Origin: Candidatus Nomurabacteria bacterium
GTDB lineage: Bacteria > Patescibacteriota > Saccharimonadia > Saccharimonadales > VXPC01
NCBI GenBank assembly: GCA_020631905.1
Contig: JACKGQ010000001.1
Location: forward strand, 101,854-165,853
Length of the DNA: 64,000 nt
Direction: 5' to 3'
The translations under genes were made by a program, and so were the position numbers. The notes beneath the pieces were generated by a model. The model did no database searches. It saw only the letters and a list, made by a program, of their open reading frames with translations, and was not told the origin of the DNA. Of the stretch, positions 2,651 to 61,814 are shown piece by piece (position 1 is the stretch's first letter; each line of letters starts with the position of its first letter).

Positions 2651-4041
2651 TGTATAAGGTCAAACATATCCGTCCACAGCATTTCGACTACGATCTAATA
2701 GTAATCGGATCTGGCGCCGGAGGCGGTGTTGCCGCCAATCTAAGTGCGCGTATTGGTAAGAAAGTTGCTGTTATTGAGGCAGGTAAAGTAGGTGGAGAGT
2801 GCCCAAACTATGGTTGTACACCCACAAAAGCTTTATTAACTGCTGCCGAAGCCTACACAGGTGCGAAAGAAGCAAGTCGTTTTGGCATACGAACACACAA
2901 TCTAAATTTTGACTATGCATCCGTTAAGGCTTGGAAAGATAAGGCTGTATACAACACTGGTACACACGATGGCGCTCAAGCCTTTACACGCGCAGGCATC
3001 GAACTCATCAAGGGCCATGCACATTTTCTGAATAAATGGACGGTTTCGATTGGCCATAAACGCCTGACGGCTCGTAAGTTTTTGATTGCTTCGGGAACCT
3101 ACAACCTGATACCGCCAATCGAAGGTCTAAAACAAACAGGTTACATAACTTACCGCGAAGCTATCGAGTTAGAACGACCTCCAAAGAGTCTACTAATCAT
3201 TGGTGGCGGGGCGATTGGTGTTGAGTTCGGAGAAATTTTTAACACCTTTGGAACAAGAACCGTTGTAGCTGAACTTGCACCTCGCTTGCTCGTAAAAGAA
3301 GATCAAGAAGCGGGCATGCTACTCGAACGTACCATGACCGAAAAAGGAATCGAAGTACATACAGGTACTAAAGTGATCAAGGTGACAGGAAAACCTGGTC
3401 GTAAAGAGGCGACATTAGAAAAAGAAGGTAAAATTTCTAAAATAATAGTCGAGGAAATCTTACTGGCGACCGGTAAAGCCGCCATGACCGATATTGGCCT
3501 AGAGAACGCTGGCGTAGCTTATGAGCGAGGTGGAATCATCGTCGATCAGTACATGCAAACCACCGCCAAGCATATCTATGCAGCTGGCGATGTCGTGGGT
3601 CCGTATATGTTTACCCATATGGCTTCATACCAAAGCCGGATAGCTGGGCATAATATGTGGCGCCGCTCAAGAGTTCGTGCAAAATATCACGCCGTTCCAA
3701 GATGTGTTTTTACTAGCCCCGAAATTGCTAGTGCGGGCTATACCGAAACCGAGCTTATACAGAAAAAAATCGACTACCAGCGAGCGGCAATCCCTATTAG
3801 CATTATCGGCCGCAGCAATACATCTGGCCAGGATACTGGATTTGTAAAAGTCTTAGCCAGCTACAGTGGGGTGCTCTTGGGAGCAACAATTGTTGCTCCG
3901 CGCGCCGGCGAGATGATCCACGAGCTTACCTTAGCCATCCACAAAGGCCTGAGGGCTAGTGATATTGATGAAACCATCCATGCCTTCCCTACTTGGAGCG
4001 AAGCCGTACGGATAGCTTGCAGCAAAATAATCTGTACCTAG
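2650..4041 (+). CDS. Class-I FAD-dependent pyridine nucleotide-disulfide oxidoreductase (dihydrolipoamide dehydrogenase / glutathione- or mercuric-reductase-like)
   Basis: It has the GxGxxG motif VIGSGAGGGVAA and the redox-active disulfide GGECPNYGCTPTKALL. A second dinucleotide fold (IIGGGAIGVEFGE), AAGDVVG and a C-terminal dimerisation-type region with HAFPTWSE are also present. ATG at 2650 is preferred over the track's TTG at 2647. Confidence 0.85.
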   Translation: MYKVKHIRPQHFDYDLIVIGSGAGGGVAANLSARIGKKVAVIEAGKVGGECPNYGCTPTKALLTAAEAYTGAKEASRFGIRTHNLNFDYASVKAWKDKAVYNTGTHDGAQAFTRAGIELIKGHAHFLNKWTVSIGHKRLTARKFLIASGTYNLIPPIEGLKQTGYITYREAIELERPPKSLLIIGGGAIGVEFGEIFNTFGTRTVVAELAPRLLVKEDQEAGMLLERTMTEKGIEVHTGTKVIKVTGKPGRKEATLEKEGKISKIIVEEILLATGKAAMTDIGLENAGVAYERGGIIVDQYMQTTAKHIYAAGDVVGPYMFTHMASYQSRIAGHNMWRRSRVRAKYHAVPRCVFTSPEIASAGYTETELIQKKIDYQRAAIPISIIGRSNTSGQDTGFVKVLASYSGVLLGATIVAPRAGEMIHELTLAIHKGLRASDIDETIHAFPTWSEAVRIACSKIICT

Positions 4042-51253: not shown

Positions 51254-51280
51254 TGGCTCCGAGGGGTGGATTCGAACCAA
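51254..51280 (-). pseudogene. tRNA 3'-end fragment (T-loop, T-stem 3' strand, acceptor 3' strand, CCA)
   Basis: The minus strand reads TTGGTTCGAATCCACCCCTCGGAGCCA. No matching 5' half is present. 23 of the first 26 nt match the tRNA-Asn 3' end at 59507-59532, in the same orientation. Confidence 0.6.
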
Positions 51281-57927: not shown

Positions 57928-58143
57928 ATGCAAAAACCGCCATTTCTGACGGTTCCAACATTTGTAGCTTGTAATCACTACGGCACATATTTCTCTGAGA
58001 CTCAGGAGTCAAAGGAGGAACCGGTCATGGAACTCGGTCACTCTATTTCACTGCTGGGTCTGGCTCCGGGGACTGGATTACTGGGGTATATTTTGACTAA
58101 CTTTCGCGTATGCAAGCATCCACGGTTTAGTCAAAATATCTGA
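57928..58143 (+). CDS. Questionable small ORF (71 aa) spanning the tRNA-Asn 3'-end copy
   Basis: It has a good RBS (TAAGGAG, 6 nt, ATG) but no motif, and it contains the 19-nt repeat at 58061-58079. Confidence 0.25.
   Translation: MQKPPFLTVPTFVACNHYGTYFSETQESKEEPVMELGHSISLLGLAPGTGLLGYILTNFRVCKHPRFSQNI
58061..58079 (-). repeat. 19-nt exact copy of the tRNA-Asn 3' end (att-like)
   Basis: TGGCTCCGGGGACTGGATT is identical to 59507-59525, in the same orientation, 1446 bp away. Confidence 0.85.
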
Positions 58144-58200
58144 ACCAGCGACTTGCATCAGCTAAAGCTGCTGCGTCGCTGAACCGAACCAACTCCCTGA

Positions 58201-58232
58201 ATCAAAATGAAAAGACCACCGCGAGGGTGGTC
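58201..58232 (-). terminator. Rho-independent terminator
   Basis: GACCACC-ctcgc-GGTGGTC followed by TTTTCATTTT on the minus strand. Confidence 0.65.
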
Positions 58233-58321
58233 ATCTCATTTTGGCTCACAACAATAGAGGAAGTTATAACTGCGATTAAGAGGGATATGGCAATATCATA
58301 AAAAAAGTCAGTACTTAAGAA

Positions 58322-58996
58322 TTATGCAAGCAGGGTTTCTTGATCGCCGTTTATAACAATCGCTTCACCGTCACGCAGTGTTTTGTAAGGAATATTATTT
58401 GTCTTAAAGTATTCTACGCACTTTTCAATATCTTGGGATTCTGGGTGGTCTGACCTGTAGTGTGGTGCTACAGCATAATCTAATAAGCCAAGTCCACTCC
58501 AAATCACCTCTTTATCGTAGCCTTCTGCAATTTCGTCTTTAGGATCAACGAGCTCAATGCCTCGTAATGAAGGTGCTAATACACAAACACCAGCGCTGAA
58601 ACCACCATAAGCAATCTTATCTTTTTTAAGCATTTCGACTATCAAGTTATCGAACCCGCTCTGCTTGTACGCTTTTCTGAGTATGAATACATTACCACCC
58701 CTTACCCAAATGTACCCATAATCATTCAACTTGTCGGCAAGCTCGGCAGTCTTTCCAAAATAATCACGTAAATCTAATTCTTCTGGCTGCAACCCTAAAG
58801 CTGTCAGGCTTTCGATTTCTTGTTGCACACGTTCCGTACGACTTTCAACTGACTTAGAATCTTGTGCGTTAGCAATAATTGCCGTTCGCTTGTTGTCACC
58901 AATTAAAGTCAGCATTTCTTCTGGCTTGTTACCCAGCTTATATGAAGATAAATAAAGTCTCATAGGTATTATTTTAACATCTGTGAGTCCCGTCAA
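58322..58996 (-). CDS. Peptidase S51 (dipeptidase E-like) / class-I amidotransferase-fold protein
   Basis: ...AIIANAQD...IWVRGGNVFILRKAYKQSGFD...YGGFSAGVCVLAPSL is the nucleophile-elbow Ser context typical of S51. Confidence 0.65.
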   Translation of the reverse strand: MTGLTDVKIIPMRLYLSSYKLGNKPEEMLTLIGDNKRTAIIANAQDSKSVESRTERVQQEIESLTALGLQPEELDLRDYFGKTAELADKLNDYGYIWVRGGNVFILRKAYKQSGFDNLIVEMLKKDKIAYGGFSAGVCVLAPSLRGIELVDPKDEIAEGYDKEVIWSGLGLLDYAVAPHYRSDHPESQDIEKCVEYFKTNNIPYKTLRDGEAIVINGDQETLLA

Positions 58997-59026
58997 TTAT
59001 TTTCGAATTCAACTCTACTCAGGGCA

Positions 59027-59062
59027 CACAAAAAAGTCAGAACCGATATAGCAGTTCTGACT
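59027..59062 (-). terminator. Rho-independent terminator
   Basis: AGTCAGAAC-10 nt-GTTCTGACT followed by TTTTTGTGT on the minus strand. Confidence 0.65.
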
Positions 59063-59106
59063 TAGTCTGTTCCAGTTTGGCTCTCCCTAGTGGACGTACT
59101 TCGCAA

Positions 59107-59466
59107 CTATGATGTTAAATATTCTTCCCATGTATCAAAATTAGATATGCAAAATTTAGCTACACTCGCCGCGTGAGCAAGGGCATATTCGTCGTCGAGA
59201 AATCTCCTCCCATGCTTATCTCTACGCTCAGATGCAATTTCTTTAAGCTGACCTACTAGCTCTGCGTCGGATGGTACTGGTTCACCGTACAATACAACCC
59301 CAGCCGCAAGCATTTCGCCAATATCTCTAGCTACCAGGTCATAAGCATCGCCTACTATTTGACGATGTAAGTCTGTGAATGGTGTTTGGACGCTGTGTGC
59401 CAGCCATGCAAGTCTTTCGTCAGGATCTGATCTAAGTAACTCAATATAATCATCCGGGGAACACAT
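59107..59466 (-). CDS. Hypothetical protein
   Basis: 119-aa acidic ORF with no motif. Confidence 0.45.
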   Translation of the reverse strand: MCSPDDYIELLRSDPDERLAWLAHSVQTPFTDLHRQIVGDAYDLVARDIGEMLAAGVVLYGEPVPSDAELVGQLKEIASERRDKHGRRFLDDEYALAHAASVAKFCISNFDTWEEYLTS

Positions 59467-59506
59467 AAAACTAAAAATACCACATTAGTGTTGTATAGTC
59501 AAAACT

Positions 59507-59581
59507 TGGCTCCGGGGACTGGATTCGAACCAGCGACCTAGTGGTTAACAGCCACCCGCTCTACCGCTGAGCTACCCCGGA
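59507..59581 (-). tRNA. tRNA-Asn (GTT)
   Basis: 75-nt cloverleaf. Acceptor TCCGGGG/CCCCGGA, D arm GCTC-AGCGGTA-GAGC, anticodon loop CTGTTAA, T arm GCTGG-TTCGAAT-CCAGT, discriminator G, encoded CCA. Confidence 0.9.
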
Positions 59582-59823
59582 ATAAATTGTTTAACGTACT
59601 CTCGACCCTTTGCAGATTTTAGAGATCTCTCTCGTTGAATCGCTTCAGAACGAGTGGTAAATGATTCCTTATAAATCAACTCCCATTCGCCCTCAAACTT
59701 AGAAGTAAAGCTTTTTGTTTTGTGTTTATTATTATGCGCTAGCAACCTAGCCTTAATGTTCTGAGTTTGACCTATATATATCTTACTCGCGATCTTATTA
59801 AAGATTACATAAACATAAAACAC
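59572..59823 (-). CDS. Small GIY-YIG (URI-domain, COG2827-like) nuclease
   Basis: FYVYVIFNKIASKIYIGQTQNIKARLLAHNN...ELIYKESFTTRSEAIQRERSLKS has the GIY/YIG, R and E motifs. The GTG start lies 6 nt after TGTATAAT. The last codons and the TAG stop lie inside tRNA-Asn nt 1-10. Confidence 0.8.
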   Translation of the reverse strand: MFYVYVIFNKIASKIYIGQTQNIKARLLAHNNKHKTKSFTSKFEGEWELIYKESFTTRSEAIQRERSLKSAKGREYVKQFIPG

Positions 59824-59860
59824 GTTCTTATTATACAGACACCCTCCGCCAGCTGGCGGA

Positions 59861-59874
59861 TGAGCTACCCCGGA
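59861..59874 (-). repeat. 14-nt exact copy of the tRNA-Asn 5' end
   Basis: TGAGCTACCCCGGA is identical to 59568-59581 (tRNA nt 1-14 on the minus strand) and lies 293 bp upstream of the tRNA. It is followed on the minus strand by the 16-bp palindrome TCCGCCAGCTGGCGGA (59845-59860). Confidence 0.85.
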
Positions 59875-60084
59875 TTAGCGCTTCGCTTACGAGACAAAAC
59901 TACGTTTTTTCTCATCGCGCGGGACGCGAAATAAATTCGACGTTCCGGCTGCTCTTTTTCTTTATCAAGAACAGACAAGCTTTGGAATGTACGTGAGCTG
60001 ATCACTCAATTACAGGGGTCAAGTATACTGTTTTCTATCAGCGGTGTCAAAGGACTATAATAAAAGTGTAGTAAAGGAGATCTT

Positions 60085-60339
60085 ATGGCAAATATCAGCG
60101 ACAAAGAACTCGAGCAGGCGCTTGAGAGTAAAATAAAATCTAGGTTTTCACGCAAAGATAAAAAACACAGAAGCTCTGGAGGTGGTGGTGCATATTTTAT
60201 CGCATTTGTTGGTGCGATCGTTTACTACATGCAGGCAGCCACAAGTTTTACGACAGTTGTTACGGGCATATTAAAAGCCTTAGTGTGGCCTGCAATCATC
60301 GTCTATAAACTATTAGAAAGTTTTTACGGGGTTGTTTAA
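60085..60339 (+). CDS. Small membrane protein
   Basis: 84 aa with a basic N-terminus and two TM helices. TATAAT plus AAGGAG lie upstream. Confidence 0.5.
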   Translation: MANISDKELEQALESKIKSRFSRKDKKHRSSGGGGAYFIAFVGAIVYYMQAATSFTTVVTGILKALVWPAIIVYKLLESFYGVV

Positions 60340-60341
60340 AA

Positions 60342-60536
60342 ATGACCAAGAAATATAGATATGTATTGATAGGAACTATCTTGAGCTGGTCTATGGGCTA
60401 TTTAGGTGCCGATCGAGCTTATAAGGGCGAGATGGGTTTAGCAGTTTTTAAACTTCTAACTCTCGGCGGTGTTGGAGTATGGTGGATAGTCGACGCCTTT
60501 TCTTGGACAAGAGATCTAGGCAATAGCAAAGACTAG
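60342..60536 (+). CDS. TM2-domain protein
   Basis: LGADRAYKGEMGLAVFKLLTLGGVGVWWIVD fits the TM2 domain pattern. Confidence 0.65.
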   Translation: MTKKYRYVLIGTILSWSMGYLGADRAYKGEMGLAVFKLLTLGGVGVWWIVDAFSWTRDLGNSKD

Positions 60537-60829
60537 GTGTCTATAAGGTGAAGTTCCACATCATAAGATTCACCCTCAATTAACTTCTGCTGTTCGCGGA
60601 TTTGTTTGTTAATTGGTAGCATAAATGTTTCTGTCTTAGAATCTGGAAAGATTGATGTTTTCCAGATAGAATTACCAATTTTCGCTTCGACTTTTACAGA
60701 CCCAAAACCTCGCGCATACCCAGATGCAAATAACTTTATCTCTGGGTAGTAGTCTCTTGGCAGTGACATAAAATGCCATGCAGAGTCTCCTTGCCACTTC
60801 CACAGTTTTGCTTTGAAATCATAGGTCAT
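60533..60829 (-). CDS. DUF1905-family protein
   Basis: FKAKLWKWQGDSAWHFMSLP...VKVEAKIGNSIWKTSIFP is the typical DUF1905 signature. Confidence 0.65.
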   Translation of the reverse strand: MTYDFKAKLWKWQGDSAWHFMSLPRDYYPEIKLFASGYARGFGSVKVEAKIGNSIWKTSIFPDSKTETFMLPINKQIREQQKLIEGESYDVELHLIDT

Positions 60830-60833
60830 ACTA

Positions 60834-61814
60834 CTATATTAACTTAGTCGCGAGTGCCAAGTATACCAATAGATAAATCGAGCCTTCCCAGGCATGAATT
60901 CGTCGAGTAATCCCGCTAACCACCAGAAGCATACTAGCCAGTACCAAGCCACCAATCGACCACCACACCAAACTTTCGCTTATGTGTTGATCGGCAACCA
61001 GACTAGAAACGCCACCTACCATTAATATATTAAAAATACTTGATCCTAAAATATTGCCTAAAACCACATCGCCCTGACCCCTCCGCAGTGCCTTGAGGCT
61101 AACAACAAGCTCTGGCAAACTGGTGCCGATTGCCAGCGTGAAGAATGTTAATTTATCAACCTGATAGTTAACGTGCTCGACTATCTGAAGTAAATTATCA
61201 ACAGCCAATTTTGAGGCAAGCCCCAGCAGAATCAACGAGGCGCATAACATAAAGATACTCGTTGCTAAATTTTGCTTTGGCTTTACATCTATCTCGACAA
61301 CTTGCCGATCGGTGCCTTTTATAAGGCTCGCCACCAGTCCGACTAAGCCCTGATGGTACTCATTCTTTTCTCGATATGTGATTGTGTAAAGCACATAGCC
61401 GAAGAAACCCGTTAATAGCAACACACCATCAAAACTAGATAAATTGCCATCCGAAATCATTATTCCGAACAACGAGGTTACGCCAATCAAAAGTGGCAGA
61501 TCGATATCAATTAGGTCTTTGTCGAAATTAATCGTACCCATAAAAAAGGTGCTGATGCCTAGTATCACTAAGATATTGGCGAGGTTCGAGCCGACAATAT
61601 TGGCGATGGCTACATGGTTCACTCCGTCTATCACAGAAGCCAAGCTAGTGGTAAGCTCTGGCAAGCTGGTACCAAAACCAACTAGCAGTACGCCTAACAC
61701 AAAAGGCGATAGACCTAGCCTAACTCCAATCGACTCTGCTGCGGCCAGAAACCAGTCAGCGGCTTTTACCACTACCAATAGGCCGAGCACTAACATAGAT
61801 ATCTCAAAAATCAT
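60834..61814 (-). CDS. Ca2+/cation antiporter (CaCA family, YrbG-like)
   Basis: Two alpha-repeats, GFGTSLPELTTSL and AIGTSLPELVVSL, in a protein of about 10 TM helices. Confidence 0.85.
   Translation of the reverse strand: MIFEISMLVLGLLVVVKAADWFLAAAESIGVRLGLSPFVLGVLLVGFGTSLPELTTSLASVIDGVNHVAIANIVGSNLANILVILGISTFFMGTINFDKDLIDIDLPLLIGVTSLFGIMISDGNLSSFDGVLLLTGFFGYVLYTITYREKNEYHQGLVGLVASLIKGTDRQVVEIDVKPKQNLATSIFMLCASLILLGLASKLAVDNLLQIVEHVNYQVDKLTFFTLAIGTSLPELVVSLKALRRGQGDVVLGNILGSSIFNILMVGGVSSLVADQHISESLVWWSIGGLVLASMLLVVSGITRRIHAWEGSIYLLVYLALATKLI

Follow-up and report, generated by a model that had tools for sequence, protein, structure and literature searches.

A GIY-YIG nuclease cassette with a half-tRNA duplication at tRNA-Asn genes of Patescibacteria: a probable homing-type selfish element

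Why does a small nuclease gene stand so close against the 5' end of a transfer RNA (tRNA) gene that the two share their nucleotides, and why is the beginning of the same tRNA present a second time on the far side of the nuclease gene? The question is raised by a locus on contig JACKGQ010000001.1 of Candidatus Nomurabacteria bacterium, in a stretch of 64 kb that was analyzed as a whole and is called the window here. A GIY-YIG open reading frame (ORF) lies there directly upstream of a tRNA-Asn gene, within a cassette of 293 bp. The answer that we favor, probable but well short of certain, is that the locus has been occupied by a free-standing cassette, selfish and of the homing-endonuclease type, which belongs to a family that lives on Patescibacteria tRNA-Asn genes. 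The features of the locus, all on the minus strand, are listed from the tRNA outward.

59507-59581, minus strand: tRNA-Asn(GTT), intact and intron-less, 75 nucleotides (nt) (ARAGORN; Rfam tRNA model, 70.5 bits)
59572-59823, minus strand: ORF of 83 amino acids with a GTG start, stand-alone GIY-YIG nuclease of the UPF0213/COG2827 type (ORF list; Pfam)
59821-59823, minus strand: start codon GTG, 6 nt (AAGAAC) after a TATAAT hexamer
59830-59837, minus strand: extended -10-like box TGTATAAT, found in the sequence
59835-59844, minus strand: second piece of a dead tRNA copy, GGGTGTCTGT, equivalent to standard tRNA nt 26-35 (9/10 identical)
59845-59860, no strand: perfect palindrome of 16 bp, TCCGCCAGCTGGCGGA, replacing tRNA nt 15-25 (D-arm) of the dead copy
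59861-59874, minus strand: first piece of the dead tRNA copy, TCCGGGGTAGCTCA, exactly tRNA nt 1-14 (59568-59581)
59875-60015, minus strand: structured leader, the native upstream context of tRNA-Asn (this filled site compared with 14 empty metagenome loci)
60022-60050, minus strand: strong sigma-70-like promoter (TTGACA, 17 nt, TATACT; 11/12 matches in the promoter scan)

The ORF ends with ATT CCG GGG TAG, composed of the AT that precedes the tRNA and of tRNA nt 1-10, which double as the last codons (Pro, Gly) and the stop, U8-A9-G10 of the tRNA being read as TAG. The 14-mer TCCGGGGTAGCTCA occurs at only two sites in the 64 kb even with two mismatches allowed, and the expected number of second exact copies within 400 nt is about 3e-6. 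Direct repeats of at least 14 nt within 400 nt were found at only three other sites of the window, all tandem or of low complexity. The 14-nt repeat is not a product of chance. Perfect palindromes of 16 bp are not rare as such (three in the window), and the one at this locus is significant because it is conserved in related loci. The content of guanine plus cytosine (GC) of the ORF is 35.7% versus 43.3% for the window, among the lowest 3.7% of 252-nt windows. No inverted repeats were found at the cassette ends, and no recombinase, integrase or transposase in the 293 bp or the neighboring ORFs. An earlier note, made from the letters of this DNA alone, had described the exact 14-nt repeat, the palindrome, the TGTATAAT box, the GTG codon 6 nt after TATAAT, the GIY-YIG ORF ending in tRNA nt 1-10 and an intact tRNA, and had put a chance recurrence at the order of 1e-6; all of this holds.

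The duplication extends farther than nt 14. When the tRNA and the upstream fragment were compared by ungapped matching once the palindrome had been located, the 10 tRNA-like nucleotides GGGTGTCTGT, overlooked in the earlier note, were seen to follow the palindrome; their counterpart in the intact tRNA, GGGTGGCTGT, is the 5' strand of the anticodon stem together with C32-U35. As aligned here, the dead copy consists of tRNA nt 1-14, the palindrome in place of nt 15-25, and nt 26-35, a duplication of about 35 nt. The closest relatives of the cassette, in two loci labeled L260 (protein 76% identical) and L261 (70%), match nt 26-35 at 10/10 positions, and the dead-copy layout of the window is also found in L003, L033, L037 and L039. 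At most loci, the palindrome lies in the D-loop and the tRNA resumes after it as GGTAGAGC plus host-specific anticodon-stem bases; tRNA homology in the clade of the window resumes at standard nt 26. Since the position of the palindrome varies by clade, after nt 8, 9, 10, 13, 14 or 23, nt 14 is no fixed insertion point. In the window, L003, L261, L015, L033, L039, L040 and L041, the homology reaches as far as ...CTGT (nt 35); many other loci lose it earlier, at nt 24-33. The insertion at nucleotide 14 claimed in the earlier note has therefore to be revised, because the remnant extends to nt 26-35, the junction is in the anticodon loop and the palindrome is variable in position.

The TGTATAAT box spans this junction, with TGT being U33-G34-U35 of the dead copy and ATAAT being cassette sequence, and the identical junction CTGT/ATAAT is present in L003 and L039. 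The box may act as a promoter element; it was missed by the two-hexamer promoter scan, which skips it because a -35 match is absent. The spacer before the start codon is not alignable between the closest cassettes.

The arrangement is not confined to one genome. When one genome per species was searched with an alignment of 15 close nuclease homologs, 57 loci were obtained, which span Saccharibacteria, Uhr-, Davies-, Wolfe-, Magasanik-, Berkel-, Levy-, Roizman-, Nealson- and Campbellbacteria, and others. In 53 of the 57, the ORF is immediately followed by a tRNA-Asn gene of the same orientation (44 found by ARAGORN, 7 with a tRNA-Asn split by a group I intron and 2 cut inside the tRNA by the contig end). 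The ORF stop is exactly tRNA nt 8-10, with an overlap of 10 nt, in at least 29 loci, and the last residue of the ORF tracks nt 5-7 of the host acceptor stem (G, A, E, T, L, R, V, K and others). One of the two search patterns contained a terminal IP; the tRNA linkage is not an artifact of the search, because many loci outside this pattern share it (e.g., L010, L011, L022, L024, L035, L037 and L048). The host's own tRNA, from nt 1 to nt 9-23 (mostly 13), is repeated exactly 278-371 nt upstream in 29 of 38 tRNA-Asn loci, and the upstream copies in the remaining ones are interrupted by the palindrome or carry one mismatch. The repeat varies among hosts exactly as the tRNAs do (GGGG, GGCG, GGAG, GACT, CCTG, CCGG, GCGA, etc.). 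Relatives thus carry the flanking repeats as well, and the geometry that had been described from a single locus, an ORF abutting a tRNA 5' end with an upstream repeat, recurs in about 50 loci phylum-wide. About 10 of the 57 contigs end 6-570 nt after the ORF (L004, L009, L016, L022, L029, L034, L035, L037, L040 and L057), which hints that repeats or strain heterogeneity at the locus break assemblies.

In at least 47 of the 57 loci, the repeat is followed by a palindrome, which precedes the ORF start by 20-70 nt. Its consensus is TCCGCCAGCTGGCGGA, and its variants keep the symmetry by compensatory changes (TCCGCTGTACAGCGGA, TTCGCTGTACAGCGAA and TCCGGCAACTGCCGGA; the second-closest relative has TCCGGCAGTTGCCGGA). 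The remaining parts of the 6-kb loci contain few palindromes of this kind; extra copies in related loci number 79 near versus 15 far, most of the far ones differing in sequence and the near ones clustering at the cassette, its tRNA fragments or adjacent introns. A dispersed repeat resembling repetitive extragenic palindromic sequences or miniature inverted-repeat transposable elements was rejected, the palindrome being present as a single copy in the 64-kb window. Palindromes that are nested in others or are partly duplicated were seen about 40-70 nt upstream of the ORF start in L006, L019 and L023, one lies inside the group I intron of L040 (3337), and two lie downstream of the tRNA in L025 (3388 and 3556). 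Just downstream of the real tRNA, L039 (~3340-3470) and L053 (~3335-3465) contain a full-length tRNA-Asn pseudogene with three different GC-rich palindromes, one replacing the D-arm, one in the variable loop and one in the T-loop.

Sites without the cassette were found by scanning metagenomes for the exact tRNA of the window with a few variable positions allowed. The scan gave 120 loci with a tRNA identical to that of the window, and none of the 120, of which 98 have at least 350 nt upstream, carries the ORF, the 5' repeat or the palindrome upstream of the tRNA. In 14 of them, the stretch of about 90 nt leading up to tRNA nt 1 shares homology with what precedes the dead copy in the window (...GCGCGATGAGAAA-hairpin-GTCTCAT-AGCGAAGCGCTAA, ending at the boundary). 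This leader abuts the intact tRNA in the 14 empty loci and the dead copy in the window, and in L260 it also stands before the dead copy; it therefore marks the old 5' boundary of the tRNA, and the comparison of filled and empty sites shows that the occupied site equals the empty site plus 293 bp. The dinucleotide AT that precedes the tRNA is present in 70 of 99 empty sites, which places it outside the duplication. That the cassette is an insertion, as the earlier note had proposed, is thus supported by empty tRNA-Asn sites, 14 of them with the same leader. An empty allele of the same species was not among five further contigs, found by exact-protein look-ups of both neighboring genes; all five are 99.8-100% identical and carry the cassette. 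Almost no homologs of the flanking proteins were found beside the 120 metagenomic tRNA-Asn loci, and only LexA-like and glycosyl-phosphotransferase genes of about 50% identity recur near some of these loci; the comparison of filled and empty sites comes from the leader and not from neighboring genes. The largest ORF of the cassette-free locus L125 has 492 amino acids and the N-terminus MKAYLLARVSTDDQ...; it resembles a large serine recombinase by eye only.

The leader is conserved over about 90-110 nt in L078, L079, L081, L085, L099, L116, L129, L134, L152, L164 and L260. The fold predicted by RNAalifold contains 17 pairs, 9 with compensatory changes, no Rfam family matched at E < 0.1, and the leader may be an unrecognized leader or small RNA that is co-transcribed with the tRNA. 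No terminator-like site was found on the minus strand between the promoter at 60022-60050 and the tRNA, and a strong promoter with no such terminator implies read-through transcription; the promoter would drive the leader, the dead copy, the ORF and the tRNA as one transcript.

The ORF matches the Pfam GIY-YIG family PF01541 with E = 2e-17 and 63.7 bits (cut-off 22.6) over profile positions 1-74 of 78, and no other Pfam domain was found in its 83 amino acids. The GIY-YIG motifs are YVYVI (Y5) and IYIGQT (Y16, G18). Residues Y16, G18, R26, H30 and E65 are invariant in 35 homologs, R26, H30 and E65 also in the 15 close ones, and R26 and E65 are those that we take, from the Pfam alignment, to be the catalytic Arg and Glu, with H30 as the His that comes after the Arg. 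The AlphaFold model has a predicted local distance difference test score of 92.4 and the order of secondary elements E-E-H-E-H-H (E, strand; H, helix), in agreement with the GIY-YIG fold of a three-stranded sheet between helices. The Foldseek matches include 1ZG2, 7WME, 1YWL, Slx1, the UvrC N-terminal domain and I-TevI; 1ZG2 and 1YWL are the best, At-HIGLE and Slx1 come next, and UvrC and I-TevI follow. A profile search of the PDB gave 1YWL (8.2e-7) and 1ZG2 (3.3e-5). The ratio of nonsynonymous to synonymous substitution (dN/dS) is 0.09 versus L260 and 0.13 versus L261, with dS of about 1.5, near saturation. By its sequence, the ORF encodes a genuine GIY-YIG protein under purifying selection, and the dN/dS values, the invariant catalytic residues and the confidently predicted fold indicate that the protein is functional.

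The 35 homologs were obtained from 5.8 billion proteins searched and include Saccharibacteria, Uhrbacteria and Calditrichaeota; a protein of the same sequence is annotated in the Candidatus Saccharibacteria genome GCA_020428525.1. Nearly all close homologs have the C-terminus ...I-P-x followed by the stop. As a proof that an ORF ends in tRNA-Asn, the terminal IP is weakened by Bacteroidota relatives that end in ...FIPK or ...FIPP with no tRNA-Asn following. A scan of viral contigs with the family alignment gave no member of the nuclease subfamily; the matches, at 31-62% identity, are only partial and lie in the N-terminal part with the GIY-YIG motif (from residues 1-30 up to 1-66 of 83, with one extending to 79), and carriage of the cassette nuclease by phages was rejected on these grounds.

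The distribution of the cassettes is patchy, gives hints of movement and includes decay products. In the neighbor-joining tree of the ORF, the window groups with L003, L035 and L037 (Saccharibacteria), L033 (Microgenomates), and L036 and L039 (Levybacteria). Common to the members of this clade is also a layout in which the palindrome replaces the D-arm and homology resumes at nt 25/26, and host classes (Saccharibacteria, Microgenomates and Levybacteria) are intermingled within ORF clades of one palindrome layout. The piece before the palindrome in L036 is of host type and the piece after it, AGGAAGCTGT, is of the tRNA type of L033, L037 and L039, while the ORF-terminal tRNA fragment of L013 reads TCCGCAG versus TCCGGAG in the host tRNA. 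The view of the earlier note that the element carried its own 5' segment may hold for these foreign-type fragments; usually the fragment is of host type before and after the palindrome, even in L045. There, in Wolfebacteria (2900-3320), a cassette with an identical palindrome is present on tRNA-Lys(TTT) with the same 10-nt overlap, and both pieces of its dead copy, before and after the palindrome, resemble tRNA-Lys.

Bacteroidota loci L046 (2872-3330) and L050 (3001-3330) have a mirror-image layout, in which the ORF is followed by a partial 3' copy of tRNA-Met that starts at the anticodon loop (GGGCTCATA) and carries a palindrome of the TCCGCC...GGCGGA type. The intact tRNA is upstream of the ORF in L046 (tRNA-Met, just upstream) and in L052, likewise of Bacteroidota (tRNA-Val, 2355-2830); ARAGORN found none in L050. 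ORF-less remnants composed of a tRNA 5' piece, a palindrome, a tRNA piece and the last few ORF bases lie between the ORF and the tRNA in L024 and L260, similar units of tRNA piece and palindrome follow the ORF in L007, L013, L016, L031 and L041, and the ORFs of L038 and L051 are pseudogenes with in-frame stops.

The junction lies close to a known site of intron insertion. Patescibacteria tRNA-Asn genes carry group I introns at position 35/36 (Nakagawa et al. 2026, PMC13011429); the tRNA-Asn intron was reported in 15/95 complete genomes, most tRNA introns are without endonuclease genes, and GIY-YIG genes and palindromes are not mentioned in that paper (PMC13011429). Seven of the 57 cassette loci have an intron in the tRNA right after the ORF (L003, L016, L038, L040, L051, L054 and L059), and so has L260, the intron position being ...CTGT/intron. 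The RF00028 matches in L003, L038, L051, L054 and L059 are in the tRNA 3' of the ORF, not around the ORF. An Rfam scan of positions 58000-61000 of the window with E up to 1 gave the tRNA only and no group I intron, by which a group I intron around the ORF of the window was rejected. No endonuclease ORF was seen in the small 35/36 introns of L003, L038, L040, L054, L059 and L260, for which no ORF scan was made. As the frequency of introns in cassette loci (about 13%) is no higher than the background reported for the phylum (15/95), it shows no association of cassettes with introns; the position of the junction, at or next to the intron site, is suggestive of a link between them. A coding sequence for an HNH-type endonuclease (...CANCHRELH) lies inside the 35/36 intron of L051 (~3290-3600), and the end of an HNH ORF is directly upstream of the dead tRNA copy in L054 (~2870-2960), so that two endonuclease families crowd the same tRNA gene.

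If the cassette is a selfish element of the homing type, we infer its cleavage target and insertion mechanism as follows. The nuclease would cut a tRNA-Asn gene that lacks the cassette, and the break would fall in or close to the anticodon loop or else at the hairpin-forming arms. It would be repaired from the occupied allele via the conserved tRNA homology, by which the cassette would be copied and the half-tRNA duplication left behind. With homology on the tRNA side only and an illegitimate join on the other, the duplication would end at the break, and such one-sided repair would explain why the 5' part is duplicated in Patescibacteria and the 3' part in Bacteroidota. The palindrome would interrupt the dead copy, which would then be neither a target nor a long direct repeat by which the cassette could be deleted. 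The tRNA would keep its function and would have to be transcribed through the cassette, and the RNase P cut at tRNA +1 would strip the stop codon from the nuclease mRNA and so make expression self-limiting. A bolder proposal, which we regard as doubtful at present, is that stand-alone GIY-YIG genes of the UPF0213 type and the GC-rich palindrome together make up a separate class of tRNA-gene parasites, undescribed so far. Their insertion point would be the anticodon loop, the gene would survive through the duplication of half of the tRNA, and the dead half would be retained for a use of its own, as homology arm or as operator. In Patescibacteria, they would also supply endonuclease in trans to the 35/36 introns, which would be a first role for this family.

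Several findings weigh against a homing-type element, and they have to be set beside the competing explanations. L260 has its junction at nt 37 and the outlier L044 at about nt 48; the junction is hence not strictly at 35/36, and an exact coincidence with the intron site is weakened. The resident tRNA being identical to the cassette-free tRNA, the occupied allele has no evident immunity if the tRNA is the target, and a protecting intron is present in only 7 of the 57 loci. All same-species contigs are occupied, and thus no recent gain was caught; the neighbor-joining tree comprises about 80 residues with no support values and no formal reconciliation, and the activity and the target of the nuclease are both predicted. 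Although synonymous sites are saturated, the dead copy still agrees almost perfectly with the tRNA before and after the palindrome, and simple homing gives no explanation for such near-identity of an old copy. Selection would have to maintain it, as a homology arm or operator, or else it would have to be renewed from the target. The protein consists of the bare catalytic domain with no DNA-binding domain, and its closest characterized structural relatives, Slx1 and At-HIGLE, are structure-specific nucleases, not site-specific homing enzymes. An explanation centered on the palindrome builds on these relatives and is unlikely in our judgment: a nuclease similar to Slx1 or HIGLE would act on hairpins or cruciforms, with the palindrome as its substrate or as a small mobilized element, the tRNA genes would be hit via their hairpin-forming arms, and the half-tRNA duplication would be a by-product of repair. 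It is kept alive by palindromes that replace or extend tRNA hairpins (D-arm, variable loop and T-loop in the pseudo-tRNAs of L039 and L053), lie inside introns and are nested in one another (L006, L019 and L023), and also by the compensatory changes in their arms, by the rank of Slx1 and At-HIGLE among characterized fold matches, ahead of UvrC and I-TevI, and by ribosomal RNA (rRNA) insertions of candidate phyla radiation (CPR) bacteria, those with GIY-YIG ORFs being non-intron and most rRNA insertions lying at the tops or bases of stem-loops (PMC11270868). The palindrome is, however, single-copy in the window with no dispersed repeat, the strict tie of the cassettes to a single tRNA species in a single orientation speaks more for recognition of a sequence than for pure structure specificity, and the structure-specific activity would follow from the modeled fold.

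The insertion point may also be sought in the D-loop. An element with the palindrome at one end, the ORF in the middle and a tRNA nt 1-14 of its own at the other end would have been inserted by homing at nt 14/15, and the tRNA-like 10 nt would be a carried relic. This fits the palindrome directly after nt 14 in the window and its two closest relatives, the inheritance of palindrome layout with the ORF clade, and L036, where the segment after the palindrome is foreign and nt 1-10 before it are host-type, as expected if the palindrome is the left end. We nevertheless find it distinctly unlikely, given that the palindrome is variable in position, that the segment after it normally fits the host anticodon stem, even for tRNA-Lys in L045, that the partial 3' copy in Bacteroidota starts at the anticodon loop, and that a working chimeric tRNA would need the same acceptor stem in donor and host. 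A domesticated, vertically inherited operon, in which nuclease and half-tRNA leader would serve the host or regulate tRNA-Asn or the nuclease and absences would be losses, could account for the strong purifying selection with saturated dS between nearest cassettes, a dead copy kept far beyond neutral expectation, the orientation and overlap fixed in about 50 loci, and the presence of the cassette in every sampled contig of the species. Its probability is low in view of its absence from 120/120 loci with an identical tRNA, of pseudogenized and ORF-deleted copies, foreign-type fragments in L013 and L036, relatives on tRNA-Lys and on tRNA-Met of Bacteroidota, and a GC content below that of the host. 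tRNA genes are classic integration sites, and a 19-bp repeat of the 3' end of this same tRNA bounds a 1.43-kb insert on its other side, but a scar of an integrase-mediated island or transposon targeting the tRNA gene has next to no probability, as no integrase or transposase was found in the 293 bp or nearby, terminal inverted repeats are lacking, the duplicated part is the 5' half, and the same layout of 290 bp recurs in about 50 genomes. An integrase-type island was accordingly rejected (no recombinase; the repeat is the tRNA 5' half), and so was a transposon or insertion sequence (no transposase, no terminal inverted repeats, an interrupted duplication of 35 nt).

Other tRNA-derived repeats were noticed in the window. 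The last 19 nt of tRNA-Asn (AATCCAGTCCCCGGAGCCA, minus strand, 59507-59525) are repeated exactly at 58061-58079, 1.43 kb downstream, and the two copies enclose an ORF of 119 amino acids and an S51 peptidase gene. The same-species contig L266 (1-120), 100% identical over 1,074 nt including the cassette, does not have the 1.43-kb segment; there, sequence like 58037-58060 follows immediately after the 3' end of the tRNA. The segment is thus a polymorphic insert at the tRNA 3' end, and no integrase was found for it. At 51254-51279 on the minus strand, a diverged tRNA T-arm with acceptor 3' end, GGTTCGAATCCACCCCTCGGAGCCA, is 88% identical to the 3' part of tRNA-Asn and may be an older attachment-site remnant, and no recombinase was found among the ORFs at 50.3-57.8 kb.

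The cassettes apparently form a family of tRNA-gene parasites that is undescribed so far. No account of a tRNA-Asn cassette with a half-tRNA duplication, a palindrome and a tRNA-borrowed stop, and no functional study of UPF0213/COG2827 GIY-YIG proteins, was found in the limited collection of literature searched. If our reading holds, a selfish gene can occupy an essential, unalterable RNA gene with no need of an intron, by duplicating half of its target and borrowing U8-A9-G10 as its stop. An endonuclease gene stands at the 35/36 site of introns that are reportedly without homing endonucleases, and mobilization in trans becomes testable. The tRNA 5' fragments and palindromes beside tRNA-Asn can mislead tRNA annotation and may break assemblies.

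The UPF0213/COG2827 family gains a concrete genomic context. The cassette protein resembles its members 1YWL and 1ZG2, deposited only as hypothetical or UPF0213 proteins, in sequence profile, best fold matches, size and domain make-up; with 83 amino acids and the domain only, it is within their range of about 80-110 amino acids. Slx1 requires Slx4 and has an extra zinc-finger domain. Islands that target tRNA genes by tyrosine or serine recombinases likewise insert into a tRNA gene and keep it whole by a partial direct repeat, but they duplicate the 3' part and bring an integrase, whereas the cassette duplicates the 5' half and has 293 bp and no recombinase. In collaborative homing, a free-standing endonuclease gene lies beside a gene that has an intron at the presumed target site (cyanophage psbA/F-CphI; T4 mobE), similar to the 35/36 introns directly 3' of the ORF in L003, L038, L040, L054, L059 and L260; about 85% of the cassette loci differ in having no intron.

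SegB, a free-standing GIY-YIG homing endonuclease of the T4 tRNA gene cluster and one of the Seg proteins of T4-like phages, is comparable as a selfish, patchily distributed GIY-YIG gene outside introns and among tRNA genes, and according to the abstract it recognizes a conserved tRNA-gene motif and drives the inheritance of itself and its flanks (PMC2330249). It is a phage protein that reportedly recognizes a 27-bp site, whereas the cassette protein, known here from its sequence, is a bare domain of 83 amino acids in a bacterial chromosome, and the abstract on SegB describes no half-tRNA duplication, palindrome or stop in an ORF/tRNA overlap (PMC2330249). With the 35/36 group I introns (PMC13011429), the cassette shares the phylum, the tRNA and the site in the anticodon loop, exactly or to within 1-3 nt, but it is not spliced out, the tRNA is regenerated by duplication, and the tRNA of the window is without an intron. 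Comparable in host and gene content are insertions in the rRNA genes of CPR bacteria that encode GIY-YIG proteins and are not introns, likewise within structural RNA genes of the same phylum; likened to the cassette here by description, they are reportedly sparse and not site-specific, and rRNA insertions of all kinds in that study lie mostly where stem-loops have their tops or bases (Tsurumaki et al. 2024, PMC11270868). The GIY-YIG insertions lie inside the rRNA genes, whereas the cassette is strictly tied to one tRNA, whose gene it leaves intact by duplication.

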